Shown one piece after another: positions 30-54,049 of a stretch of DNA of 54,049 nucleotides. Below the pieces are notes generated by a model, which did no database searches, was not told the origin of the DNA, and was given only the letters and a program-made list of their open reading frames with translations. Location of the stretch: positions 1 to 54,049 of IMG/VR virus record IMGVR_UViG_3300048011_000299; one strand, written 5' to 3'. Both the position numbers and the translations under genes were made by a program. Each line of letters opens with the position of its first letter. Position 1 is the stretch's first letter. The stretch comes from a virus (taxonomy: Duplodnaviria > Caudoviricetes).

Positions 30-390
30 TGACTTCGCATCCAGAATGGAGCAGCCACTGGGCGAGAAGTGGAAGTTCAGCAAGAAGCTGGAAGATTTTC
101 GCTGGGATATGATTCAGGAAGAATACGGGGAAGCTTTTGATGAAAGCTGCAACGGAAATAACCCTGAAAACATGCTCAAGGAATTAGCTGACTTAGTCTA
201 CGTGATTTACGGATACGCAGCCACATACGGCTGGAATTTAGACAAGGCAGTTCGCCGTGTACACCGCTCTAATATGAGCAAGCTGGGCTTAGACGGCAAG
301 CCCCTGAAAGGACCAGACGGCAAAGTGCAGAAGGGTCCAAATTATAAAAAACCAACACTAACAGACCTTGTGGAGACCAATGATGAGTAA
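1..390 (+). CDS. MazG-like / PRA-PH-like NTP pyrophosphohydrolase, 3' part (begins at 53925 across the circular junction; about 161 aa in total)
   Basis: EEYGE..KELADLVYV..VHRSNMSKLG.DGKP..DGKVQKGPNY motif; frame is continuous with ATG 53925 through the end overlap. Confidence 0.85.
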   Translation, partial: RHPSPLEMVSDFASRMEQPLGEKWKFSKKLEDFRWDMIQEEYGEAFDESCNGNNPENMLKELADLVYVIYGYAATYGWNLDKAVRRVHRSNMSKLGLDGKPLKGPDGKVQKGPNYKKPTLTDLVETNDE

Positions 391-2332
391 CCTATTACCA
401 ACTGACTACCAAACCTTCATAGCAACCAGCCGCTATGCGAGGTGGCTCGAAGAAGAAGGCCGAAGGGAGACATGGTCAGAGACAGTATCTCGCTACGTGG
501 ATAATATTGTGCGCCCTAAAGTAGGTGCGGAGTTTAATTTATCAGAAATAGAACAGGCTATACTGAGCCTAGAAGTCATGCCCAGTATGCGGTCAATGAT
601 GACTGCAGGTAAGGCGGCTAACCGCGATAATACGTGTATGTATAATTGCAGCTATCTAGCCGTAGATGATTTGAAGGCCTTCGATGAGGCTATGTTCATC
701 TTGCTTTGCGGTACTGGAGTAGGTTTCTCTGTCGAGAGACAGTATATCAATAATCTCCCTGAAGTTCCGACTCTCTTCGACAGTGATACTATCGTTATGG
801 TCAGGGATAGTAAGGAAGGCTGGGCTAAGGCTTTCAGGCAAGTTCTTGCTCTCCTGTGGGCTGGTGAAATTCCAAAATGGAATGTGGAAAAAATAAGACC
901 GGCTGGCTCTAGGCTAAAGACATTCGGGGGCAGGGCGTCTGGCCCAGCGCCGTTAGTCGATTTGTTTAACTTTGCAGTCACTACGTTTAAGAATGCTCAA
1001 GGACGTAAGCTGTCTTCGATTGAGGCGCATGATCTAATGTGCAAAGTAGGAGAAGTAGTAGTCGTTGGCGGTGTACGCCGCTCCGCAATGATTTCTCTGA
1101 GCAACCTGTCTGATGACCGTATGCGTCATGCTAAGTCCGGTAAGTGGTGGGAGAATGACCCACAACGCGCATTAGCAAACAACTCTGTGGCCTACTCAGA
1201 GAAGCCTGACAGCATGTCCTTCATGCGGGAATGGACTGCCTTGGTAGAGAGCGGGTCAGGGGAGAGAGGCATCTTCAACCGGCAAGCTGCTATTAAACAA
1301 GCTGCTAAGAATGGACGCCGTGACCCTAATCGTGAGTGGGGTACTAATCCCTGTAGTGAGATCATTTTAGCTGGGCCTAGAACTGATCCAAAGACTGGTA
1401 ATCCTATTGCCGGTACAGGTGGGCAATTTTGCAACCTCAGTGAAGTAGTTGTGAGGGCAACCGACACGATAGAAGACTTGGAGCGTAAGGTTAGGCTGGC
1501 TACTATTTTAGGAACCGTACAGGCCACCTACACTAAGTTCCCGTACCTTCGGAAGGTCTGGGAGAAGAATACTGCCGAAGAGCGTCTGCTTGGCGTCAGC
1601 CTGACAGGTATTATGGATAACCCGCTAATGACTACAGCCAACAAGGGATTGGCTGAGACTTTAGAGCATCTAAAGCAGGTTGCAGTGGATACTAACAAAG
1701 AGTGGGCAGATAGGCTTGGAATAGAGCAGTCGGCTGCTATTACGTGCGTGAAACCATCGGGAACAGTTTCGCAGCTAGTAGATAGTGCTAGTGGCATACA
1801 TGCCCGTCACTCTCCATATTATATCCGTACAGTAAGGGGTGATAATAAAGACCCTCTAACGCAGTTTATGATAGAACAAGGCATTCCCAATGAGCCAGAG
1901 GCATTTAAGCCTGATCAAACGACTGTATTCAGCTTTCCAGTTAAGTCTCCTGAAGGAGCGGTCTGCACCGCAGATATGACGGCTATTGAGCAGCTTGAAA
2001 TGTGGCTGATGTACCAACGGCATTTTGCGGAACATAAACCAAGCGTAACTATAAACGTAAAGGCTGATGAGTGGTTTGAAGTAGGCGCATTTGTGTATGA
2101 GAATTTTGATGAGATGTCTGGCGTATCGTTCTTGCCGTATGATGATCATACTTATCAACAGGCTCCTTATCAAGAATGTGAGGTTGCAGAATATCAGATG
2201 TTGCTAGGTCAAATGCCTGAACGCATTGACTGGTCGAAGCTGGCAGACTACGAAAAAGAGGACACAACGGTCAGTATGCAGACGATGGCTTGTACTGGAG
2301 ACAGTTGCGAACTCGTTGATATTTCAGCATAA
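380..2332 (+). CDS. nrdJ: Class II (adenosylcobalamin-dependent) ribonucleotide reductase
   Basis: PSMR, YNCSY, GTGVGFSVE, GGVRRSA, TNPCSE, QFCNLSE, TCVKPSGT and C-terminal ACTGDSC; no small subunit gene; GGAG RBS before ATG 380/383. Confidence 0.93.
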   Translation: MMSNLLPTDYQTFIATSRYARWLEEEGRRETWSETVSRYVDNIVRPKVGAEFNLSEIEQAILSLEVMPSMRSMMTAGKAANRDNTCMYNCSYLAVDDLKAFDEAMFILLCGTGVGFSVERQYINNLPEVPTLFDSDTIVMVRDSKEGWAKAFRQVLALLWAGEIPKWNVEKIRPAGSRLKTFGGRASGPAPLVDLFNFAVTTFKNAQGRKLSSIEAHDLMCKVGEVVVVGGVRRSAMISLSNLSDDRMRHAKSGKWWENDPQRALANNSVAYSEKPDSMSFMREWTALVESGSGERGIFNRQAAIKQAAKNGRRDPNREWGTNPCSEIILAGPRTDPKTGNPIAGTGGQFCNLSEVVVRATDTIEDLERKVRLATILGTVQATYTKFPYLRKVWEKNTAEERLLGVSLTGIMDNPLMTTANKGLAETLEHLKQVAVDTNKEWADRLGIEQSAAITCVKPSGTVSQLVDSASGIHARHSPYYIRTVRGDNKDPLTQFMIEQGIPNEPEAFKPDQTTVFSFPVKSPEGAVCTADMTAIEQLEMWLMYQRHFAEHKPSVTINVKADEWFEVGAFVYENFDEMSGVSFLPYDDHTYQQAPYQECEVAEYQMLLGQMPERIDWSKLADYEKEDTTVSMQTMACTGDSCELVDISA

Positions 2333-2340
2333 ATCACAAT

Positions 2341-2372
2341 AAAAAAGCCCTCAGATCGCTTGACCTGAGAGC
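2341..2372 (-). terminator. Intrinsic terminator ending the minus-strand late operon
   Basis: Minus strand reads gctctcag-loop-ctgagggc followed by TTTTTT. Confidence 0.7.
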
Positions 2373-2388
2373 GCATTTACACTAAAAT
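2360..2388 (+). promoter_or_regulatory. Sigma70-type promoter for the putative sRNA
   Basis: TTGACC-17 nt-TAAAAT; no plausible plus-strand ORF before the next terminator. Confidence 0.7.
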
Positions 2389-2394
2389 GTATCT

Positions 2395-2467
2395 TGAATG
2401 AGGTTGAGATTGGTCCACCTTGTTCGTTGGTTGAGACCCCTGCTTTGGTTGGCGGGGGTCTCTTTCT
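2395..2467 (+). ncRNA. Putative trans-acting antisense small RNA (about 70 nt) complementary to early-gene ribosome-binding leaders
   Basis: Promoter upstream; 11-bp terminator stem at 2433-2462; core GAUUGGUCC-ACC-UUGUUCGUUGGUUG complementary to several translation initiation regions. Confidence 0.65.
2433..2467 (+). terminator. Intrinsic terminator hairpin (sRNA and nrdJ operon)
   Basis: gagacccctgc-tttggttg-gcgggggtctc then tttct. Confidence 0.75.
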
Positions 2468-5400
2468 ATTCAGGGAAGTTTTTCCTAGTCTCAAAGTTTG
2501 GCATTACACCTAAAGCAGCTTCAGTCATATCTTCACCCACGGCTATAGCTAAACTATTGAGTACTGGGTTACTATAATCTTGCTGGCCGTCTTCTTCTTC
2601 TCTGATACGGATTTGGTATCTACCGTCCAGCCGTGCTACCCGAAGAGCCGCTAAGGAAGCATCTCTGATAGCATCCCTAGATTGTCGCTTCCTAGTTATA
2701 TCTACAAGATTAGCAAATTCTTTAGGGCTTGTAATAATGGTAGCCAAAACCTGTTTGTGGATTTCTTTTTCGAGGGCAATAATTTCCTCTACTCTAGCGG
2801 ATGATAATCTACGCAGCATTGCAGCGGTTGGGTTCATGTAACCGGCTAGTACCAGAATACTGGTTGAGACAGCATCTCTAGTTTCTTCACCTATTCTAGT
2901 AAGTATCTCTGTATTAGAACCTACAGGAACATCCCTGAGCAGGGTTGGACCAGCATTGGCATATAAGACATTAAGAGCGTTGAATACACCTACTCTAACT
3001 GACTCTGTGGCTGCGTCAGCGGCTCCCTCTGGAAAGATGATGTCTAAGCTCTTCATTAAGCCTTTGGCAGAATCGGCGGTAAGCTTAACAATCTGGCTTG
3101 GCTGTATATTACGAAGCGGTGTGCCGTCAGGTTTAAAGCCGGTTATGCTTGATCCAAATACTTTCGAACCGACTGTATCTAAAGCAACAGACTGTAAGGC
3201 TTGTTGAGCAAGAAGACGTTGGCTAGTGGGTAGCTTATCTATCTCAGCCATTAGTTCTATAGTGCCATTGCTATCGGGCTTAGTAATAATATCCGACAGG
3301 GCTGCTCTAGTATCAGTTCTAGCGGCCTTACCTACACCACCCGATCTGCGAGTTACTTTAGATAGAAGATCATTTAGAACAGAGCTTTCTGCGGCCTTCA
3401 GAGCTTGCTTGGCTTGAGTAATGCTCTCTTCAGCACCTAACAAGTCATCTCCTAAATCACGCCGCCTCTGGCCTATGTCTACAACCATCTGCGCTAATCT
3501 GTCTGCACTCTGGTCATTACCGGCTGCGCGTAATTGTTTGATGGCAGGAGCAATTTGCTGATTGAGGTCTATCTCACTCATGCCTTTTGTAGCCAGTACA
3601 GAAAGCTTCTCCATCATCCTAGCCATGATGAGATCACCCATAAGAGGGGTGGTCGGCCCTACGTTACCCATAGATTCATCGATGGCTTCGTATAGCTGCG
3701 TAAAGCCTGACCCGTCAGCCTCATCCATAGCCGTATTGACGTAGGATTCCATTGCACGGTTGGAGTCTACAACACCTTGATCCCTAGAGGTTACTTGAGA
3801 GGGGTCTAGATTACGCTTGGAGCGTTGATCTGATAGTACAGACGTAAGAGCCTTAATCCGGTCATCATTACGCCAGCGATTATCAAAGTCTTTGTATTTC
3901 TGGTCAGCTATTTCTGCAAGTTCTCTGGTCTCTCCCTGAGCGTAGCCTAATTGACCCAGATTACCATCATCTTGCACTTTGGAAGAAATGTGCTTTTTAA
4001 TTTGACTGAATTTCTGAGCTAATTTTGGATTAGTTGCAGAGTAAGTGTCATACATACCGCTAAGAGTGGGCCGTAAGTTATAAACGTCTTGAAAGCCTAT
4101 GGTACTACCAATTCTCTCAAGAAACTCTGCCTTCTTTTCAGGTCTGATAAATATCTCACCACTGGTCTGCATAGTGAAAACACCATCAGGACCATATAAA
4201 AAAGTACGGGTATCCTCAGTAACCATCTTCTTATTAGTAAGTGCGGTGTAGATTTTACCCAAGGCATCTCTGGCTTGATTGCCGCTGGAGTCAAAGACGT
4301 TTACGTTTTGAACTGCGTCCAGAACTTGATCGACTAAAGCTTCCGCAGCCGCAGGTCCAATAGGCGTATTGGGAATTGCTCTAAAGGCAGCTTCTACTCC
4401 ATCTTTCTGAGCTTCAAAGACAGGGTATGCAGTACTTTGAGTCCAATTAGATAATGCCTGACGGTCATCACCGGTAAGCTGCATCTGGGTGAAGTCATCC
4501 ATCAGAAGATCGATGGATTGGTCATCTGCTACTACATTATCGATGTTTGTTTTAATAGCATCCCTAGCAGCTTCAGCCTCAGTAATGTCAGCGCCCAGAG
4601 CATTCTTTTCTACTTCAATTTGCCGTGACAGATTACCTACAGTAGTGTCTGCGGCTTCATCTATATCACCAGCAATGCGGGAGTTAGCAAATTCAGAGAA
4701 GAAGTCTCCCATTTGATTGAGGACGGCATTATCTGTGCCAGCCACATCTGGATTACTTCTATTACTACGCATGATAGAAATCATACGCTGATACATATCT
4801 CCAGAAGCCTGTTGGATCATTTCTTCAAATTCGTCGGCTCCCATAGTATCCTGAAGATGCTGACGGGTTTCTCGCATATAGGCCTCAGAGCCTGTCATCA
4901 GAGCCTGAGCCGTAGGTACTGGGATGTCTTTCTGAAAATCAGCAATCTTCAGTGTGACTACGGCATTACTGTTTAGTACCTTAGAAAGAACTTTTAAATT
5001 CCTTCCTACCTCAAGAGCATTCTTACCCTTCATCATAGTTGGGTCTAGAAACTCAGCTACCTTTAGGACTATGCCGTCTTGTACGGCGGCACTCATCCCA
5101 TCGAGGTCTCTGATAGTTGCCCCTGTAGCGTATTTACCTTTGCGAGTAATAAAATTAAACAAGGGAGTTGCTACTGTAAGCAAGCCATCCATAGCACCGT
5201 TAAGAATTAGACCGTCTGCTAATACAGCTAAATCATTGGCAGTTTCATCTGTTATATCTGCACCAGCACTCTCTGCTATACCTTTAATACGATCCGAAGA
5301 TATTACTAAACCAGAATCTCCTTCACTAACGGCCAGTGTTTCTAAAATAGAGCCAGATATTGTATTAGCGGTAACTGTACCAACGCCACCTAATTTTGCA

Positions 5401-15125: not shown

Positions 15126-16022
15126 TTAACCCTCTTCCATTTGAACTTCGACAACGAGCCTGCCGTGGTTGAAATTTCCTGATGTAGCATAAAAACGGAA
15201 GCCGCCTTCCATTGCATTGGGTGCTGGATTGCTACCGTAATTATTCCATCCCCCATGTTCGACATTGGGATAGCTATGAGAACTGTGCTGCCACATTACA
15301 TTGTGGTGAGCGCCACCGCCTTTTTCTGATTCATGGGAAGAACCTTCGCGCCAAGGAATAAACATAATTTGGCCCGTAATACCTTGTCCATAGCTGCTAT
15401 TTGTCTCCGCTATTGGGTTGCCGTAGAGTGGAAATCTCATCCAACCGTTGGCTGAATTGTCAAGGGTTCCACTCATATTATTTTGATTATATCTGCCGGT
15501 ATAAGTGCCGCCTAAATAGCTATTGGAAAGAAGGGAGTTACTACTACTAAGCCCGTAGATGTAAATGTAGAAGCTGGAAGTACTACTAACTTCATACATA
15601 GACAAACGAACACCAGCAATTTTTTCATAGGTGATGTCCGAGTTTATGCTTGCCCAAGTAATGTCGTAAGTACCTGTTGCCGAAAGAGTTTTGAAGTCGT
15701 ATGTTTTTGAGTACGTTGAGCTATTTGGCGTGGGCGCTGAAACGTATTCAAGAGCGGTTGCTCCAGTGTTGACCGCAAGTTGCTGACCAGCCAAACCTAT
15801 CGTCGCTGGTAGGGCATTAGGGTTGAACTGTAGCTGCCCAGAGCCGTCAGTGGTTATGGGCTTGTTCGCAGTTCCATCGGCTGCCGGTAGCTGAAGTGGA
15901 GAGTACGCAAGCGTACCACTTCCGTTTGTGACAAGAGGTGCGTTAGCGCCTCCGTCTGTCGAGGGCAAGGTAAATGTCGTACCCCCATTTTTGGCTATTT
16001 GATCTACTATGATCTTACTCAT
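15126..16022 (-). CDS. Tail fibre-associated protein (298 aa)
   Basis: MSKIIVDQI start; repeated LP..DG.A...L.T.GSG.L units; precedes the chaperone. Confidence 0.6.
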   Translation of the reverse strand: MSKIIVDQIAKNGGTTFTLPSTDGGANAPLVTNGSGTLAYSPLQLPAADGTANKPITTDGSGQLQFNPNALPATIGLAGQQLAVNTGATALEYVSAPTPNSSTYSKTYDFKTLSATGTYDITWASINSDITYEKIAGVRLSMYEVSSTSSFYIYIYGLSSSNSLLSNSYLGGTYTGRYNQNNMSGTLDNSANGWMRFPLYGNPIAETNSSYGQGITGQIMFIPWREGSSHESEKGGGAHHNVMWQHSSHSYPNVEHGGWNNYGSNPAPNAMEGGFRFYATSGNFNHGRLVVEVQMEEG

Positions 16023-36035: not shown

Positions 36036-36461
36036 CTATGCTTTCAGGTAATCGATAGCTCTTTGCATCAAGTCTGGGTCATCTCTAAATTTACCCAAGC
36101 CTGTATTGCAGGAGTCACAGAGAAACCCTCTAAAGTTACCTGTGATGTGGTCATGGTCTAACCTGAACGGTGTCTTGTTTCCCATACCGGGTGAATATAA
36201 TTGGTCTGCAGTCTTCTGGCAGATAGGGCAGGAATGTTCTTCCGGTAGTTTATGTCTGTCGTGTAACTCACGCATCTTGGCGTTGTGTACTTTAAGACAT
36301 TTCTTGCAGGTACAGGCTCGGCCCAAGCTCTTAGACTTGTTGAAACCAAACCTGTCTATTGGCAGTACCTGTCTGCAGCCAGAACAACGCTTAGTATCCC
36401 CAGAGTAGACTTCGTCTGAAGTAGCGTCTTTCCAGCCAAATAGGTTAGGCTGTTGGGTCAT
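36036..36461 (-). CDS. Endonuclease VII-family (His-Me finger) nuclease
   Basis: CPIC..LDHDHITG.FRGFLCDSCNTGLG.FRDDP; extra N-terminal CxxC pairs. Confidence 0.85.
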   Translation of the reverse strand: MTQQPNLFGWKDATSDEVYSGDTKRCSGCRQVLPIDRFGFNKSKSLGRACTCKKCLKVHNAKMRELHDRHKLPEEHSCPICQKTADQLYSPGMGNKTPFRLDHDHITGNFRGFLCDSCNTGLGKFRDDPDLMQRAIDYLKA

Positions 36462-36783
36462 AGTCAGCGTCAAAAAGATCAGCAACTACTTCGTCGCTTC
36501 CTTCTATCGTCTGAGCTAATTCCCTTAGCTTAGTAGCTTCCTTAGTGAGTTCAGAGGCTATGTCGTATAACTCCCCATACTCAGACTCCGCATTGTCCAA
36601 GACAAACTGAGTAATCTCCCAAAATGGTTTCTGGATAGTAACCTTCTCATCCTCACCAACTTCCAAAGTAGTCTGAAGGTACAACATCCCTGAGTCTGGT
36701 ACTTGCAAGTCGTGGTCTAAGAAAAACGGTAGCCCGTCAGCAAACAGGACGCCGTCTTCTCCAAAGTCTTTATCATTAGCCAT
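36445..36783 (-). CDS. Acidic hypothetical protein (112 aa)
   Basis: First ORF of the minus-strand late arm; promoter directly upstream. Confidence 0.6.
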   Translation of the reverse strand: MANDKDFGEDGVLFADGLPFFLDHDLQVPDSGMLYLQTTLEVGEDEKVTIQKPFWEITQFVLDNAESEYGELYDIASELTKEATKLRELAQTIEGSDEVVADLFDADYDPTA

Positions 36784-38688: not shown

Positions 38689-38964
38689 TCACACCTCCAC
38701 ATAAACGATGGTGTCAGGCTTCAGGAATATCTCCTTGCACACATCATCAGCCGAACTGCATGAGAAATTGGCAAAGGCTGGCATCCCATACTTTGATTTT
38801 GGGTTGTAGTGATTTCTGACAAATTCGCCTTTGGCGTTTGGCTTGCGTCTGAAATATTCACCCTCTTTAACAGAGCGCAGCGCGACTGCCTGCATCCCGT
38901 TTTCTAGCGTCATAATATCTGCCGCCATTTCATTGAGCAGGTTCAGGTTTGGTTGATTGGTCAT
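38689..38964 (-). CDS. Early hypothetical protein (91 aa)
   Basis: GGAGGT RBS; ATGA overlap with the upstream gene. Confidence 0.65.
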   Translation of the reverse strand: MTNQPNLNLLNEMAADIMTLENGMQAVALRSVKEGEYFRRKPNAKGEFVRNHYNPKSKYGMPAFANFSCSSADDVCKEIFLKPDTIVYVEV

Positions 38965-39224
38965 TGGCTCACCTCCGCAAAAGCAGCACTGAATACTTCC
39001 AACATATAATGACCACTTGAGCAGTCGTATTCCTGATCATTCAAAGCACGGTCAAAGTATGCTTTTGTGAGCGCTTCGTTTTTGCTGTCGAAAGTAAAAC
39101 GTCCAAATTCACAATCCCGAAAATGCCCTTCAGTGATCCACTTACCCTTTGCGTTTTTCACTTGGATATCCCAGTCAAAACCATTTTGGTTTTTTGCTAT
39201 TTTTGTTTCAATTTTATCTGTCAT
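38961..39224 (-). CDS. Early hypothetical protein (87 aa)
   Basis: Conserved AACCAA..AAGGACCAAATAAATG leader. Confidence 0.65.
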   Translation of the reverse strand: MTDKIETKIAKNQNGFDWDIQVKNAKGKWITEGHFRDCEFGRFTFDSKNEALTKAYFDRALNDQEYDCSSGHYMLEVFSAAFAEVSQ

Positions 39225-39264
39225 TTATTTGGTCCTTTTTGGTTGGTTGGTTTCGATCAGGCAC

Positions 39265-39293
39265 AGATGCCCGTGACCCCTGTTAACATGCAA
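39265..39293 (-). promoter_or_regulatory. Putative early promoter with a GTTAAC box
   Basis: Minus strand TTGCAT-17 nt-GCATCT; GTTAAC at 39282, with three more copies up to 39383. Confidence 0.4.
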
Positions 39294-39463
39294 ATATTAA
39301 TTATGTCCACAATAAACTGTTAACAGACCGCGATAAGTTAACAGGCCAATAGAGCGCATATAACGGCCACTGAGTGAGTTAACAGGTTCTGCTACTTAGA
39401 GGTCATGAAATCGGCTAGACCCCACTCACCGGCGATTTTCGGTTTTTTCGGGGTAATTTTGCC

Positions 39464-39492
39464 AAAAAAAAGCCCCATCCGAAGACAGGGCC
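39464..39492 (-). terminator. Intrinsic terminator
   Basis: Minus strand gccctgtc-TTCG-gatggggc then T8. Confidence 0.75.
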
Positions 39493-39514
39493 AGTTCAGG
39501 GGAGAATTTACTGG

Positions 39515-39688
39515 TCAGCCGGTGGCTTTTTCCAGCCGGTCTATTGATCGGTTTAGCTTGGCTGCTTTTCTTTGCAGAGCCAGCAACCGGCGGCGTTCAG
39601 TTCGACGGCTGCGGGTAGGGGTGGTGGCTGCATATGAAAACTGGCCGGTCATAAAATCAGATGGCTTATGTTTGAAGCTTTTTCCCAT
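39515..39688 (-). CDS. Small Arg-rich early protein (57 aa, not in the ORF track)
   Basis: MGKSFKHKPSDFMTGQFSYAATTPTRSRRTERRRLLALQRK...; GGAGG RBS; TAATG overlap. Confidence 0.6.
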   Translation of the reverse strand: MGKSFKHKPSDFMTGQFSYAATTPTRSRRTERRRLLALQRKAAKLNRSIDRLEKATG

Positions 39689-40590
39689 TATGCTGCCTCC
39701 AGAAAACGGTTATCTGAAATCCACTTATTAACCTCTAATTCACGCTGCATCATATTGGCTGCGCGGTTTTGATTAGCGGCATCAGTCTGGCGCAATGCAA
39801 ACCCGTTTCGATCATCCGCATAAGTGGCATAATTGGTCCAAGCAGATACCAGAGCGAATTTGTTTTTACCTCTGATTGCGGCCTCTGATTTATACAGCGA
39901 AAACATTTTGTCTGCTTTGTTTTCGACTTGCCGCTTGCTGTCGGGGTTGGGCTTTGGAGCCATCATCGAATTGAGCAGCGCCTTCACCGTGCCATCGGTC
40001 AGGCTGGTTTGGGCAAATACTTTCAGCCGTGCGCTGTCAGCATAAAAATCATTCTTCGCTGTCCGAAGCTGCTTGATAAAACCTTCCATTGAGAACTGGC
40101 TGCTATTTCTGCGGCGCACCTTCGAGTGTTCTCCCGATACCATCCCATTTAAACAGAATGCATCTATCGCGCCGAATAGGGTGGTGTTCGATCCAGAGCC
40201 GCCGTCGATAGAGTGCAAGGCAATGATGCGCTGCTTGATGGTTGTCTGGTGTTCGTCGGTTTCAATCTGTGTTGCGATAGATGGAAACTGGATATCCATC
40301 ATTCCAAAAGCACCATTTCTGCCAGACTGAAATCTAAGCTGCGCGCCCTCAGTGTCGGCTGGGTCCATGTTCTCGGTCACCTGTTGCCATACACCCTCGA
40401 AGAAACTGCGGTGGCTGGCGCATGAGAACGTGTCTCCCACATGCCCCAGCACCTTGCCGGTGTTTCCATCGATCACAAATTTGTGCCGGTCCTGTCGGCT
40501 TGCTTCGAACACCGGATCGAAATCCAGATCAGTTGGCAGTTCGAGGTCTTGGCTGAAGTTTTGAAAATCTAACATATTTCTCTCTTTCAT
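39688..40590 (-). CDS. DUF932-family protein
   Basis: ALHSIDGGSGS..FGAIDAFCLNGMV resembles the NSHDG..C.NG motif; start at 40590 or 40575. Confidence 0.65.
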   Translation of the reverse strand: MKERNMLDFQNFSQDLELPTDLDFDPVFEASRQDRHKFVIDGNTGKVLGHVGDTFSCASHRSFFEGVWQQVTENMDPADTEGAQLRFQSGRNGAFGMMDIQFPSIATQIETDEHQTTIKQRIIALHSIDGGSGSNTTLFGAIDAFCLNGMVSGEHSKVRRRNSSQFSMEGFIKQLRTAKNDFYADSARLKVFAQTSLTDGTVKALLNSMMAPKPNPDSKRQVENKADKMFSLYKSEAAIRGKNKFALVSAWTNYATYADDRNGFALRQTDAANQNRAANMMQRELEVNKWISDNRFLEAA

Positions 40591-40651
40591 TGATTGGTTG
40601 GTTTGTTCGTTGGCTTGGCAGCCCCAGAGATTGGAGCCGCCGGTTTTTTAA

Positions 40652-40867
40652 TTAAGCAGCACGCCAGAGGCGCGAGCTATCATCATCGATCTTGCGGCAA
40701 GTGGCCTTGAACCCGTGTGATTTCATCGCGTTTATGATGCTGCTCACATTTGCGTTGGGAACCTTGAGGCTGTCACCTACGGCCATTGGCTTGGTCAGGT
40801 TTACCCATTTGCCTAAAATGGTTTCAGGCAGCGGAATATTCTTTTCGAGGATTACTTGATCTGTCAT
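40652..40867 (-). CDS. Small early protein (71 aa), possibly DNA-binding
   Basis: LEKNIPLP..KW..MAVGDS..RLWR; conserved leader. Confidence 0.65.
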   Translation of the reverse strand: MTDQVILEKNIPLPETILGKWVNLTKPMAVGDSLKVPNANVSSIINAMKSHGFKATCRKIDDDSSRLWRAA

Positions 40868-40953
40868 TTATTTGGTCCTTTTTTCGTTGGTTGCTGACTG
40901 ATCGTCAGGCAGGAAACATCACTTCCCTACTACAGGCCCATAGGCCTGTTTCA

Positions 40954-41169
40954 CTATGCAACCATAAACAGGCGTTCTTGCGCCTCTGCAATTTGCCACT
41001 GCTTCATAGACCGGCCCTCGAAAATCGGCACGATGCGGTCATTACGCTCGACAACGATATAATTGCATTGATCGAGCCGATAACCGCGCAGCGCATGGTC
41101 AAGGCGCTTTTCGTTTGCGTAGGATTTGGCTGATTTTAATTTGATGGCGCTACGATTACGTTTCTGCAT
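40954..41169 (-). CDS. Early hypothetical protein (71 aa)
   Basis: Start re-called at MQKRN after the AAGGACCAATCAA leader. Confidence 0.6.
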   Translation of the reverse strand: MQKRNRSAIKLKSAKSYANEKRLDHALRGYRLDQCNYIVVERNDRIVPIFEGRSMKQWQIAEAQERLFMVA

Positions 41170-41281
41170 TTGATTGGTCCTTTTCATTTTCATTTTGTGT
41201 CTGCTCGTTCAGCCAGACGTTTATGCTTTCTATTTCACCGAAGAATAAATCGTCGGGCATTTCCCTTAAGTCGTTTGACAT
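41156..41281 (-). CDS. Small acidic early protein (41 aa, not in the ORF track)
   Basis: MSNDLREMPDDLFFGEIESINVWLNEQ...; AAGGT RBS. Confidence 0.4.
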   Translation of the reverse strand: MSNDLREMPDDLFFGEIESINVWLNEQTQNENEKDQSNAET

Positions 41282-41371
41282 TGTTGAACCTTTTTTGCTG
41301 TCAGTTAAAAATAATGCTCAAAACGTCGAGCCAGCACGATAAAAACCCATACAAGGCGAAAAAGTATTTGA

Positions 41372-41581
41372 TTAGCGCACCGCCTTTATTAGGTGGTTCT
41401 CCATTGTGATAATGCCAAACCATTCTCTGCCTTTTCCGGTGATATGTGGGCGGTTTGCTACAGTCAGTTCGCCATCGCCTCGATACTGAGGGCCAAATAG
41501 GCTGGTCTCTATATAAGACAGCGGTTTGCCTACGTTTTCTTTGCAAGCTTTTTTGCTTGGGTAATTTGCTATCATTGTCAT
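41372..41581 (-). CDS. First early minus-strand gene (69 aa)
   Basis: YPSKKACKENVGKPLSYIETSLFGPQY; conserved leader. Confidence 0.65.
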   Translation of the reverse strand: MTMIANYPSKKACKENVGKPLSYIETSLFGPQYRGDGELTVANRPHITGKGREWFGIITMENHLIKAVR

Positions 41582-41637
41582 TTTATTGGTCCTTTTCGTT
41601 TGTTGGTTGATAGACGCAAATCTAGCGTCTGTGCCGA

Positions 41638-41667
41638 AGTCTACAGGAAACCCGTTAACAATTACAA
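41638..41667 (-). promoter_or_regulatory. Leftward early promoter
   Basis: Minus strand TTGTAA-18 nt-TAGACT; TGTTAAC in the spacer. Confidence 0.6.
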
Positions 41668-41876
41668 TAGTTAAATTAATAATTAATAACCTGACTAATT
41701 GGTCAACAAACGATTTTAAAAAATGATTTTTATTTTTTTTCCTTTCCCTGACCGGAGCGCCAGAAGGCCTTGTGAGTAATCTATCCGCTTATACGGCTGA
41801 GTATCTTTATTTTTATAGGTGTATAATGATTTGGTCGCGCAAGTAATTTTCTTAATCGAACTGTTAACTTATTTGA

Positions 41877-41906
41877 TTGACAACCTGTTAACCGCTGTTG
41901 TAGACT
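41877..41906 (+). promoter_or_regulatory. Rightward early promoter
   Basis: TTGACA-18 nt-TAGACT; CTGTTAAC on both sides of the -35. Confidence 0.7.
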
Positions 41907-41938
41907 GTCAATTCAACCAACGAATAAGGACCAATCAA

Positions 41939-42127
41939 ATGAAAGCTACTGCAATACATCACTTAATGAACGACTACTTGGAGAGTCACACGCTGGTTAA
42001 GGCTTGGCGGCTGCTAAACTACGTGCGGAAGTATCCCACAGCACTCTGCGGCCTTAACCGCACTGAGTTGGCTATATACAAGGCCATCGTCAACAACTGT
42101 GGCGAGGAGATGTCGAATGCAAGCTAG
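41939..42127 (+). CDS. First rightward early gene (62 aa)
   Basis: Start re-called at MKATA after the CAACCAACGAATAAGGACCAATCAA leader. Confidence 0.65.
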   Translation: MKATAIHHLMNDYLESHTLVKAWRLLNYVRKYPTALCGLNRTELAIYKAIVNNCGEEMSNAS

Positions 42128-43759: not shown

Positions 43760-44888
43760 AGCTCCTTACGTGCGGCCGCGAGAGGTAGGTAATGGTTGGG
43801 TGTACGACATCAGGCCTACCGCTGAAGTTCTAGAGGCTTTTCCGCATCTGAATGTTAAACCACGGGAGAACTACACCTGTATAAGAGATGCCAATGCCCG
43901 TGGCTATGAAATCAAGCGTCTGTTCGAGGCTCACAAAGCCGGTGAAGAGGTAGAGGTCAGGGCAGACAGCCGCTCTGTCGCTGCGCTGGTGGACTACTAC
44001 AAAGACAGCATGGCTTATACAAACATCAAGGCCGCTTCTACCAAGCGGTCCTACGATGGTCATCTCAGTCATGTGCTGCGTGTACACATAGGCGGCAAAC
44101 AGTTTAGCAAGATGTTTGTGTCACAGGTTGACTACGAATACGCACAAAGATTGTGGCTACACATACAGTCTGACGTATCTACACACAAAGCAAACCACAC
44201 ATTCAAGGTGCTGAAGCTGGTCTGGAACGAGGGTTTACGTGCGGGGAAAGTTAAATCTAACCCGTTCTCCTTAGTCAGGATACCCAAGCTACCGGACAGG
44301 CAGGTTATGTGGACCGTCGATCAGATCAAGGGAATGGTGAAGTACTGTGATGAGCAGGGCTATCCAAGCATGGGTACTATGATCGTCATGTGTTATGAGT
44401 TCTGCCAGCGTCCGGTGGATGTACGCACTATGAAGTGGTCTAACATAGATGGGCGTACTGGGGTGTCGAATTTCATCCAGCAAAAGACCGGCAAGCAGAT
44501 GTCCATAAAGGTAACCAACGCCGTTCAGGACAGGTTACATCTACATCAGCACCGTAACTCAGACGATTACATCTTCGCATACGAAAATACTGGGCGTCCA
44601 TACACGCAGGATCGCTGTAATAAGTTCTTTCGTAAGCTGGCTGACGGTTACGGGCTACCTGAAGTGCCTATACACGGTCAGTTCAATAAAGATGGCAGTC
44701 AGATGTATTCTACCATCTGGTTAGCTGACTTACGACGAACTGGGATAACCCATGCCAGTCAGTCTGGCTGCTCAGACAGAGAGCTAATGGCTCTATCAGG
44801 CCACAAGAACCCTCAGATGCTGGTTGTATACGCAGTAGAGGGCGAGATTGAATCTACCAACGCTAATATAAAACGAGGACTATTATAA
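43752..44888 (+). CDS. int: Tyrosine recombinase (phage integrase)
   Basis: QRPVD (R), QQKTG (K), DLRRT (R), SGHK..VY (H, Y); NPF core-binding motif; AAGGAG RBS before MAKAP. Confidence 0.88.
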   Translation: MAKAPYVRPREVGNGWVYDIRPTAEVLEAFPHLNVKPRENYTCIRDANARGYEIKRLFEAHKAGEEVEVRADSRSVAALVDYYKDSMAYTNIKAASTKRSYDGHLSHVLRVHIGGKQFSKMFVSQVDYEYAQRLWLHIQSDVSTHKANHTFKVLKLVWNEGLRAGKVKSNPFSLVRIPKLPDRQVMWTVDQIKGMVKYCDEQGYPSMGTMIVMCYEFCQRPVDVRTMKWSNIDGRTGVSNFIQQKTGKQMSIKVTNAVQDRLHLHQHRNSDDYIFAYENTGRPYTQDRCNKFFRKLADGYGLPEVPIHGQFNKDGSQMYSTIWLADLRRTGITHASQSGCSDRELMALSGHKNPQMLVVYAVEGEIESTNANIKRGLL

Positions 44889-46264: not shown

Positions 46265-46350
46265 CGTACCCATTGATTTCATTGGATAATTCGGGATACC
46301 TACAAAATGCCTGTTAACACTAATTGTTTTTATATGCGCCTAATTAAGTG

Positions 46351-46378: not shown

Positions 46379-46442
46379 GACGCTGTCTCTTTGGAGAGGC
46401 AGAATACCAAACCAACTACCAACCAATGACTAAGAGTGACCA

Positions 46443-47210
46443 ATGACCTACCTCGAACAACTAGAAGTCATAAAGGCTATCCCTATACGGGAAGGAGACA
46501 CTAAAGTAATCCAGTGTCCTTTCTGTGGTGGCTTAAAGAAGCTGTCTGTTTCTAAAGTAGACGGCCAACTGAAGTGGTATTGCTTTAGAGCAAGCTGTAA
46601 TGGCAAAGGCATATACCAAGGCAAGAGAAGTCTACAGGCAGCTAAGAATTATCTAGCAGATGCTGTACAGCAAAAGACTAGAGAGCCGAAGCCTATTCCT
46701 TCGATCACTACTCCAGCCCGTAATCACCAGCCAGCACTCGACTATCTAGATCAGAACAATAGCCTAGAGGCTTACGAAGCTGGATACATAGATGTTCGCT
46801 ATGCACCCGCAGAGGATAGAGTACTATTCTGCACAGACACAGGCGCTGTAGGTAGATCACTAAAGAAGTATGGACCTAAGTGGCTTTCTTACGGAGTGCT
46901 GGAAGAGGGCATACACGTAGGAAATGGATCAACAGCCGTGCTTGTAGAGGATACACCATCAGCCTGTTCTGTAAGCAGAGTAGACGGCTTAGTAGGCGTT
47001 GCTTTGCTGGGAACTCGCGTAAGTAGCTGTCTTAAAAAGTCTCTGAACAAATACGATGCTTGCTATTTGGTCCTTGACAAGGATGCTTCGTCTAAGTCTA
47101 TAAAGATAGGTAGGAGTATAGATAAAAGCTTACTGATTAGGTTTACTTCTGAAGATTTAAAGAACCTATCAGTTAACCAGCTTGTAGAGGTGTTAAGTAA
47201 TGAATTGTAA
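46443..47210 (+). CDS. DNA primase (zinc finger plus TOPRIM)
   Basis: CPFCGG..WYCFRASC; VLVED..SA; VALLGT; LDKDA. Confidence 0.85.
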   Translation: MTYLEQLEVIKAIPIREGDTKVIQCPFCGGLKKLSVSKVDGQLKWYCFRASCNGKGIYQGKRSLQAAKNYLADAVQQKTREPKPIPSITTPARNHQPALDYLDQNNSLEAYEAGYIDVRYAPAEDRVLFCTDTGAVGRSLKKYGPKWLSYGVLEEGIHVGNGSTAVLVEDTPSACSVSRVDGLVGVALLGTRVSSCLKKSLNKYDACYLVLDKDASSKSIKIGRSIDKSLLIRFTSEDLKNLSVNQLVEVLSNEL

Positions 47211-47766: not shown

Positions 47767-47825
47767 ATTCTATTGGCTGTGCTAAGATAACATCTTATTA
47801 ATACGTTAACAGCCAAGAGAGTTAA

Positions 47826-53928: not shown

Positions 53929-54049
53929 TCACTCAGGAAGATATCGACGCAGTGGCTGAACTAGCAGAGCCATTATCACAAGCTGGCTTACATAATATGC
54001 CAGATGACTGGGATAAACATAGGCATCCCTCGCCTCTGGAAATGGTATC
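53925..54049 (+). CDS. 5' part of the MazG-like gene (continues at position 1)
   Basis: ATGA overlap; GAGGAG RBS; in frame with 1..390. Confidence 0.8.
   Translation, partial: MITQEDIDAVAELAEPLSQAGLHNMPDDWDKHRHPSPLEMV

Follow-up and report, generated by a model that had tools for sequence, protein, structure and literature searches.

A candidate antisense small RNA of HMO-2011-type phages, predicted to pair with a leader shared by early genes

The stretch of DNA analysed here (the window) is the virus record IMGVR_UViG_3300048011_000299 from IMG/VR over its full length of 54,049 nucleotides (nt), a circularly closed phage contig of ~54.0 kb with a 29-nt terminal repeat (1-29 and 54021-54049, 28 of 29 positions identical). 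Given that this repeat shows circular closure, the rightward early/replication operon, which extends from a promoter at 41877-41906 via the replication genes, crosses the end of the contig and concludes with nrdJ. The gap of 133 nt between this operon and the converging leftward late (virion) operon holds the element that is the subject of this work, a unit predicted to encode a small RNA and composed of a promoter, a 5' stem-loop (SL1), a short linker and an intrinsic terminator (Table 1). There is strong comparative support for the prediction that this RNA is antisense to a leader shared by the early genes of the phage, with the RNA and the leaders covarying across five types in eight genomes.

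The promoter proposed for this unit in the initial annotation of the window, TTGACC-17-TAAAAT, is present. The small RNA folds with a minimum free energy of -36.4 kcal/mol (z = -6.0 against 200 shuffles). The terminator lies on the plus strand where it had been placed, with a stem of 12 pairs and a loop of 6 nt rather than 11 base pairs (bp), and what had been described as a single-stranded core of about 35 nt is to a half the stem of SL1, so that the free residues are confined to the 12-nt loop and the 7-nt linker. According to the fold prediction, the loop with its UUGGUC motif and the linker are the only unpaired parts of the RNA upstream of the terminator, and the part that is complementary to the Shine-Dalgarno (SD) box is locked, in the free RNA, in the lower stem of the hairpin. 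An anti-SD segment held in a stem, with the loop and the linker exposed, is the layout of known fast-pairing antisense RNAs. Loop presentation of the pairing segments is also reported for the c4 RNA in the relevant sections of PMC12197685. A second seed that had been suggested in the terminator loop is not kept in the cultured phage CRP-738. The unit combines several of the features by which trans-encoded base-pairing small RNAs are recognized as a general class, namely a predicted promoter, the lack of a conserved open reading frame (ORF), a Rho-independent terminator and, judging from the fold prediction and from the target rankings in all eight genomes, an accessible conserved seed complementary to targets encoded elsewhere. 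A search of the whole window against Rfam 15 yielded no matches at the gathering threshold, and in a permissive search of 2300-2520 all matches were far below the thresholds (the top one with 21.2 bits against 102.3).

Table 1. The small-RNA unit, its predicted target leaders and the flanking features in the window. Ranks come from the whole-genome ranking described in the text, and energies are cofold gains with the whole RNA.
Feature	Coordinates	Strand	Details
Predicted small RNA, ~70-74 nt	2395-2468	+	Start inferred from the -10 box, end from the U-tail
Sigma-70-type promoter, predicted	2360-2388	+	-35 TTGACC 2360-2365, 17-nt spacer, -10 TAAAAT 2383-2388; 10 of 12 matches
5' stem-loop SL1	2396-2425	+	9-bp stem 2396-2404/2417-2425; 12-nt loop 2405-2416 bearing the family-wide UUGGUC at 2410-2415
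Free linker GUUGGUU, 7 nt	2426-2432	+	Fold prediction; forms, with the SL1 3' arm, the complement of the A/C-rich leader segment
Intrinsic terminator of the small RNA and the rightward operon	2433-2468	+	12-bp stem and 6-nt loop (2433-2462), U-rich tail
Entire 5' untranslated region and AUG of the first rightward early gene (41939-42127)	41913-41941	+	Best predicted target; -18.3 kcal/mol, rank 1 of 851
Leader and AUG of 69-amino-acid early gene 41372-41581	41579-41610	-	-14.8 kcal/mol, rank 3 of 851
Leader and AUG of 71-amino-acid early gene 40954-41169	41167-41190	-	Loop-complementary part only; -7.5, rank 25 of 851
Leader and AUG of 71-amino-acid early gene 40652-40867	40865-40894	-	-11.4 kcal/mol, rank 7 of 851
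Leader and AUG of DUF932 gene 39688-40590	40588-40615	-	No AAGGA box, pairs via A/C-rich tracts; -14.2 kcal/mol, rank 4 of 851
Leader and AUG of 87-amino-acid early gene 38961-39224	39222-39252	-	-9.9 kcal/mol, rank 8 of 851
Primase leader (start 46443)	46406-46445	+	Additional candidate target, window-type clade only; -18.2, rank 2 of 851
nrdJ, final gene of the rightward early/replication operon	368-2332	+	ORF; at the nucleotide level ~70% identical to ribonucleotide reductases annotated in CRP phages (HMO-2011-type roseophages)
Terminator of the leftward late (virion) operon	2347-2372	-	Hairpin followed by T6; overlaps the -35 box of the small-RNA promoter
Final late-operon gene, 1265 amino acids	2466-6263	-	ORF; stop codon adjoins the small-RNA terminator

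A covariance model (R1), built from 15 aligned and folded copies of the unit, was searched against 81 related loci (80 IMG/VR loci around nrdJ relatives and the CRP-235 locus), in many of which a simple scan had revealed an equivalent layout. At E <= 2e-6, R1 detects the unit in the window (73.7 bits, the window itself being among the model-building sequences) and in 21 of the 81 loci; of the resulting 22 sequences, 15 had served to build the model and 7 are new. It also matches three of five longer IMG/VR records, leaving G003 and G004 without a match, and four of 11 cultured HMO-2011-type phage records, namely CRP-3, CRP-212, CRP-235 and CRP-738. The records of HMO-2011, CRP-1, CRP-2, CRP-13, CRP-207, CRP-345 and CRP-603 gave no match to R1; a weak hit in CRP-13 (E 0.0077) was rejected, having neither the loop motif nor the hairpin layout. 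According to the relevant passages of PMC9038755, subgroup III of the HMO-2011-type phages has four cultured members and is represented by CRP-3, and the cultured carriers of the RNA presumably are these subgroup III members. Further genes lie between nrdJ and the unit in CRP-235 and CRP-3, which indicates that the unit goes with the convergent junction and not with nrdJ, and a large converging ORF occupies the equivalent position in CRP-738, CRP-235 and CRP-3. In CRP-1, from which the RNA is absent, the same junction contains only a single 20-nt G+C-rich bidirectional terminator (locus L113, 18992-19033).

All 20 copies that were aligned to each other possess a TTGAC -35 box, a -10 box, the 5' stem-loop, a short free linker and a U-tailed terminator. 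The TTGAC is kept in 20 of the 20 while the hairpin arms around it vary, and the -10 box follows 16-18 nt downstream (found by pattern in 17 copies and by eye in the other three). Standard pairs account for 90.6% of the 319 pair cells, and 9 of the 16 pairs have changed on both sides; the respective numbers are three of five pairs in the SL1 stem (helix 1) and four of nine in the terminator (helix 2), in which 96% of the cells are paired. The covariation score is 0.549, compared with 0.310 +/- 0.023 in column shuffles, none of 500 of which reach the observed value, and with 0.065-0.260 for slid partners. Eight RNAs were folded, each with a z between -4.6 and -6.8. The loop reads UUGGUC in 18 of the 20 copies and UUGGUA in the other two. 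Given that G-U or U-G cells outnumber A-C or C-A cells by 54 to 10 and that the U-tails are on the plus strand, the RNA is assigned to this strand. These patterns of sequence change support the prediction that 2395-2468 is a discrete, conserved RNA gene on the plus strand.

Common to the early leaders of the window are an A/C-rich tract, an AAGGA box and, directly before the AUG, ACCAAU. The segment 2408-2434 had been recognized as the reverse complement of 41913-41936, and it is, with an exact 12-mer and an exact 9-mer in common; the leader sites listed for the starts at 39224, 40590, 40867, 41169, 41581 and 41939 likewise exist. With up to two mismatches allowed, the 12-mer occurs 9 times against 3.27 expected (none of 100 shuffles reach 9) and the occurrences cluster at 39239-41924; taken by itself, the 9-mer shows no genome-wide enrichment (10 matches, 8.3 expected). 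The genes that bear these leaders are small ORFs without an assigned function and the DUF932 protein gene (39688-40590 on the minus strand, E 3.6e-10). Small hairpins, with no T-run on either strand, stand directly upstream of several of the leaders (41611-41632, 40895-40915 and 40617-40646) and may serve the early transcripts as 5'-end or processing structures.

For the prediction of targets, every ATG or GTG followed by at least 40 open codons was ranked by its cofold gain with the entire small RNA, a measure that includes the energetic cost of unfolding the hairpin. These whole-genome rankings are unselected (blind). Early-gene leaders head the ranking in eight of eight genomes: they take ranks 1, 3, 4, 7, 8 and 25 of 851 in the window; 1, 2, 3, 6 and 7 of 564 in G002; 1, 2, 6 and 7 of 891 in CRP-738; 1, 2, 3, 4 and 7 of 898 in G001; 1, 2, 3, 4, 5 and 9 of 791 in G005; 1-4 of 954 in CRP-235; four of the top five of 1057 in CRP-3; and 1, 2, 6 and 10 of 1063 in CRP-212. 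Eight of the top 10 sites in the window are located on early or primase leaders (two being alternative starts of the same leaders), and the other two are at 15365 and 10447. In the predicted duplexes, the loop pairs with GACCAA beside the AUG, and the linker together with the 3' arm pairs with the SD box and the A/C-rich tract. For the first rightward gene, the promoter TTGACA-18-TAGACT at 41877-41906 would place the transcript start at about the first paired base of 41913-41941. Of the targets originally proposed, the six leaders and the primase (rank 2) hold up in the window; two sites are weak, namely the helicase start, which ranks 52 of 851, and that of gene 38964, which ranks 27 of 851. 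The primase homologue ranks 5 of 564 in G002 and 3 of 891 in CRP-738 (-9.3), and in CRP-235 neither the helicase nor the primase site is kept (ranks 335 and 735 of 954). The motif ATGGACCAAT of G003 was considered for the helicase site and rejected, being inside another ORF and not at the helicase start. Several other procedures were dropped, namely plain duplexfold of the full RNA, in which the G+C-rich terminator determined most of the energy; duplexfold restricted to the 5' part and run against all starts, with a background median of about -15 and counts at or below -18 that did not separate cognate from non-cognate RNAs; k-mer clustering of the leaders, which chained unrelated sites; and a crude gene caller that mis-called the small early genes.

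Across genomes, the constant elements are the loop and the GACCAA beside the AUG, and the variable ones are the linker with the adjoining stem arm, along with which the leaders differ. It had been anticipated that the seed and the leaders would change together in related phages, and the comparison of relatives bears this out, with five matched types of linker and leader in eight genomes: UUCGUUGGUUG with CAACCAACGAA in the window type, CUUCGGUUU with AAACCGAAG in the G005 type, CAAGUUUAG with CUAAACUUG in the CRP-235 type, AAGUUAGAU with AUCUAACUU in the CRP-3 type, and UCUAGUUAGAAU with AUUCUAACUAGA in the CRP-212 type. The linkers of CRP-3 and CRP-235 are distinguished by a one-base deletion, and a one-base deletion in several leaders mirrors it. 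The mean cofold gain of the RNA with a set of leaders from its own genome is -11.5 to -18.5 kcal/mol, compared with -1.9 to -8.3 kcal/mol between types, the exception being the closest pair, CRP-235 and CRP-3 (-12.2 and -3.7). Similarly, the longest Watson-Crick match to the leader part upstream of the SD box is 7.8-10.2 nt for cognate and 3.0-6.0 nt for non-cognate combinations (7.8 and 5.5 for CRP-235 and CRP-3). Relatives that retain the leaders and lack the RNA, which the initial annotation would have counted against its proposal, were not found among the four that were checked: CRP-1, CRP-207, G003 and G004 have neither an R1 match nor a GACCAA-AUG leader family (0-2 loose matches each, none of them clustered).

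On these grounds, we consider it reasonably probable that 2395-2468 encodes, on the plus strand, a trans-acting antisense small RNA that represses the translation of the early genes coordinately. Under this scheme, host RNA polymerase would transcribe the small RNA from its own sigma-70-type promoter. A terminator scan identifies 2433-2462 as the first plus-strand terminator encountered by nrdJ transcripts; because the rightward operon has no earlier one, its 3' untranslated region (UTR) would include the small-RNA sequence, which would probably be produced also as the 3' end of this operon. The RNA would fold into a 5' hairpin presenting the UUGGUC loop, a short free linker and the intrinsic terminator. 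The loop and the linker would then touch the leaders of the small leftward genes, the DUF932 gene, the first rightward gene and, in the window-type clade, the primase, after which pairing would extend through the 3' arm of the hairpin to yield a duplex that covers the SD box, reaches the AUG and excludes the ribosome. Since the predicted duplexes cover the SD box and reach the AUG, the simplest outcome would be a block of translation initiation on the leader-bearing early genes, that is, their coordinate repression. The comparative data themselves demonstrate the conserved anatomy, the strand, the covariation within the structure, the complementarity and the way in which it covaries with the leaders between genomes; the accumulation of the RNA, its pairing in the cell and the repressive outcome are what we infer.

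Several considerations weigh against this interpretation. Comparison of the target predictions with shuffled RNAs, which had been suggested as a check, is favourable in part: with mononucleotide shuffles of the pre-terminator part, the observed value is reached by none of 200 in four genomes and by 2 of 200 in G001, and by 7 of 200 in the window and 12 of 200 in G002, so that the window RNA is only moderately exceptional. The U/G-rich composition of the RNA is in itself sufficient for fairly good pairing with A/C-rich leaders. For the cross-type comparison of energies and match lengths, the leaders were hand-picked from motif and energy scans, and this matrix is not blind; the cofold calculation ignores proteins and cannot represent loop-loop kissing; and the 20 copies in which pairs were counted had been aligned by fitting to the model, a procedure that somewhat favours pairing. 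The eight genomes belong to one phage subgroup, and accordingly the five types are not five independent lineages and the co-occurrence of RNA and leaders is confounded by relatedness. The complementarity could be maintained by recombination between repeated DNA motifs instead of selection on pairing. A search for sequencing runs yielded seven, each with 0.14 or less of the sequence words; the four metatranscriptome runs examined consist of assembled contigs only, with no information on strand, start or end of transcripts. Finally, as discussed below, a putative protein regulator might also control the same early promoters.

The terminator of the late operon, a minus-strand hairpin that overlaps the -35 box of the small-RNA promoter, was omitted from the initial annotation. 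An arrangement with an A-run and a hairpin with an embedded TTGAC is present upstream of the RNA in the sequences of 20 relatives. The two converging operons thus have staggered terminators, each operon reading through that of the other, and given that the late terminator lies beyond the small-RNA gene, late transcripts traverse the whole of this gene in antisense. Since the late 3' UTR is an exact antisense of the RNA, late transcription should interfere with the RNA or titrate it, and the conserved antisense read-through suggests that the interference is mutual. The same observations, a late terminator beyond the RNA gene and within its promoter, kept in 20 copies, and some 70 nt of perfect complementarity that follow from this layout, speak for an alternative in which the unit is real and its working target is in cis. 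The RNA would then act as an antisense of the late-operon 3' UTR, as OOP of phage lambda does to cII, and control the processing or stability of the late mRNA, or the unit would be a mere case of staggered terminators, the match to the leaders being secondary in either case. A role of this kind requires no conserved loop motif, however, and it leaves unexplained both the linker that tracks the leaders through five types and the absence of the leader family from genomes without the unit. Although such a target is unlikely to replace the leaders, a cis role and a leader-pairing role can coexist.

A different explanation is similarity at the DNA level, whereby the leader motif is a protein operator or a recombination linker for cassette exchange and the junction holds an inverted copy kept by gene conversion, with no RNA pairing involved. 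The leaders are repeated 4-6 times per genome, homogeneous within and different between genomes, as in concerted evolution. Module exchange at the junction is indicated by a contig from an RNA library that follows the window to 2465 and then diverges. This metatranscriptome contig of 926 nt matches window positions 2254-2465, to the end of the small-RNA terminator, and continues into unrelated sequence, which suggests that the junction may be the boundary where relatives exchange the last late gene. Nevertheless, the junction copy differs from the leaders exactly where the hairpin requires it, with extra bases and a 5' arm that has no leader counterpart; the SL1 stem covaries on its own; the copy is embedded in a promoter-terminator frame with an invariant -35 box, with G-U pairs marking the plus strand; and a protein site would not tolerate a spacing difference of 3-6 nt. 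We therefore hold a purely DNA-level origin of the complementarity to be improbable. An equally small probability is assigned to the possibility that the RNA is real and mainly targets host mRNAs, the conserved loop serving host takeover and the phage leaders matching through common SD-proximal sequence. The loop UUGGUC is nearly invariant across all types, and many prophage small RNAs act on host genes (according to the parts of PMC12197685 that deal with them). The variable linker, however, follows the leaders of the phage itself, and CRP-3, CRP-212 and CRP-235, with three different types of RNA and leaders, list the same host strain, FZCC0040, so that different hosts do not explain different linkers.

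It is still somewhat less plausible that no stable small RNA is produced and that a chance promoter match in a terminator hairpin accompanies what are merely the overlapping 3' ends of converging operons. Promoter-like sites are frequent, with 6 in 2 kb where 3.0 are expected, and the RNA runs at hand, being contigs, contain no transcript ends; against this, TTGAC is invariant amid changing arms, with the -10 box at a fixed distance, relatives that lack the unit manage with one 20-nt bidirectional terminator, and, even if promoterless, the sequence would exist as the 3' end of the rightward operon. That the unit encodes a small protein (ORF 2398-2577, 59 amino acids) is highly improbable, given that, although its ATG is close to the predicted RNA start and an ATG is found there in CRP-235 and CRP-3 too, the ORF has no SD box before it and passes through the terminator into the converging gene, the ATG is missing from several aligned copies (e.g., L010, L012, L013, L015, L020 and L021), and the observed changes preserve base pairs rather than codons.

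With regard to the biological role of a translational repressor RNA, two options can be entertained, and each is a serious possibility that falls somewhat short of an even chance: maintenance of lysogeny or prophage immunity, which would give rise to heteroimmune sequence types, and control of the timing or dosage of early genes in lytic growth. Some other role is rather unlikely. Of the 11 records searched, 10 (all but CRP-13) encode an integrase, irrespective of the presence of the RNA; being nearly universal, the integrase was rejected as a correlate of the RNA, and it therefore does not discriminate with respect to a role in lysogeny. In the window, a tyrosine integrase is encoded at 44313-44834 on the plus strand (52 bits), and an endonuclease VII domain at 36036-36485 on the minus strand (E 5e-18). 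A pattern scan of bacterial genomes for prophage copies of the window-type core, covering this one sequence type, returned four matches (in Tannerella, Caldilineaceae, Ahrensia and Polynucleobacter), which is about the number expected by chance, and none of the four fits R1.

The initial annotation had noted the lack of a recognizable CI-like repressor. In agreement with this, a Pfam search of 20 ORFs of the early region revealed no DNA-binding domain or repressor, and Pfam together with PHROGs (the latter for 10 of these ORFs) identified only DUF932, endonuclease VII, one PHROG of unknown function and two sub-threshold matches. The window contains, however, nine boxes of the sequence CTGTTAAC against 2.04 expected (none of 100 shuffles reach 9), all of them intergenic: they are found in the two early promoter regions (39280-39385 and 41861-41892) and upstream of the primase and the helicase (46311-46318 and 47805-47812, respectively), and one of them forms the palindrome CTGTTAACAG. 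The positions of these boxes suggest that they probably are operators of a putative DNA-binding protein that would also control the early promoters, so that the RNA need not be the sole repressor. A more far-reaching combination, in which the RNA is the main and RNA-only immunity factor, silences both divergent early arms via the shared leader and defines, with its at least five types, heteroimmune groups on one host strain, the late antisense 3' UTR serving as a sponge, is tentative and appears doubtful. If true, it would amount to a bistable RNA switch between early and late expression or between lysogeny and lysis.

As judged from its sequence and distribution, the predicted RNA represents a previously undescribed, conserved phage small-RNA family. 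In the main texts of the two papers that describe these phages, PMC9038755 and PMC6918029, the terms sRNA, antisense, non-coding and repressor are absent, and a full-text literature search for 'HMO-2011' together with 'small RNA' returned no paper. The abstract of PMC9038755 describes the marine HMO-2011-type phages as a dominant and broadly distributed group. The family is absent from Rfam, and a covariance model is now available that can annotate it in viromes. The existence of at least five matched types, three of them in cultured phages of FZCC0040, provides a natural experiment on RNA-based specificity, immunity and competition between phages. Phage antisense RNAs that block ribosome-binding sites are known from a handful of enterobacterial phages, in which each of them is directed at a single locus; the present RNA, which is separately encoded, appears to control an entire set of early genes via a common leader.

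As described in the pertinent sections of PMC12197685, c4 of P1 and P7 (immI) is a structured RNA of ~75 nt, the exposed segments of which pair with a target that includes the ribosome-binding site and block translation, and variants of which underlie the heteroimmunity of P1 and P7. The RNA described here resembles c4 in being structured, in having two short exposed segments predicted to pair with a target containing a ribosome-binding site, and in the matched variants of RNA and target. Unlike c4, which is excised from the very transcript under its control and has a single locus (icd-ant) as its target, it has its own predicted promoter and lies ~14.5 kb from its predicted targets on the circular map. 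These targets are 4-7 separate leaders, distributed over both divergent early arms, and the two RNAs are unrelated in sequence and with respect to Rfam. OOP of lambda, as the same source describes it in the section concerned, is an RNA of 77 nt with its own promoter and an intrinsic terminator, directed against the 3' end of a converging phage transcript (PMC12197685). The unit analysed here is likewise short, with its own predicted promoter and an intrinsic terminator, and opposite a converging transcript, the overlap with the late 3' UTR following from the terminator positions. OOP, however, acts in cis only, on the cII mRNA via RNase III, whereas here the partner is the late-operon 3' UTR and there is covarying complementarity to distant early leaders. 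Sar of P22 is a small antisense RNA that pairs with the ribosome-binding region of the early regulatory gene ant and blocks its translation (PMC12197685, in the part that treats it). Sar and the RNA predicted here are both phage antisense RNAs aimed at the ribosome-binding region of early genes, but Sar is encoded opposite its single target, to which it is fully complementary, whereas the present RNA is trans-encoded, with imperfect, bipartite complementarity to several targets.

The CI RNA of the satellite phage P4 and the CA RNA of N15 serve temperate elements as immunity factors and target early transcripts through short complementary sites. Both derive by processing from the leader of the very operon that they control, and they bring about premature transcription termination; the RNA described here, by contrast, is a separate unit and would cover the SD box and the AUG. 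A layout of the P4 CI and N15 CA type is not found in the window, where a terminator scan detected no site between the leaders and their start codons, and the complementarity over the SD box and the AUG points to a translational block rather than to premature termination. RegA of T4 is a protein that represses the translation of many early mRNAs via a shared sequence in the initiation region, and it would work alike without being a relative, given that the factor proposed here is an RNA. The small RNA of the HMO-2011-type phages is a member of none of the c4, Sar and OOP families, being trans-encoded, multi-target and unrelated to them in sequence, and the comparative evidence is best compatible with the view that it most likely is an RNA repressor of early-gene translation.

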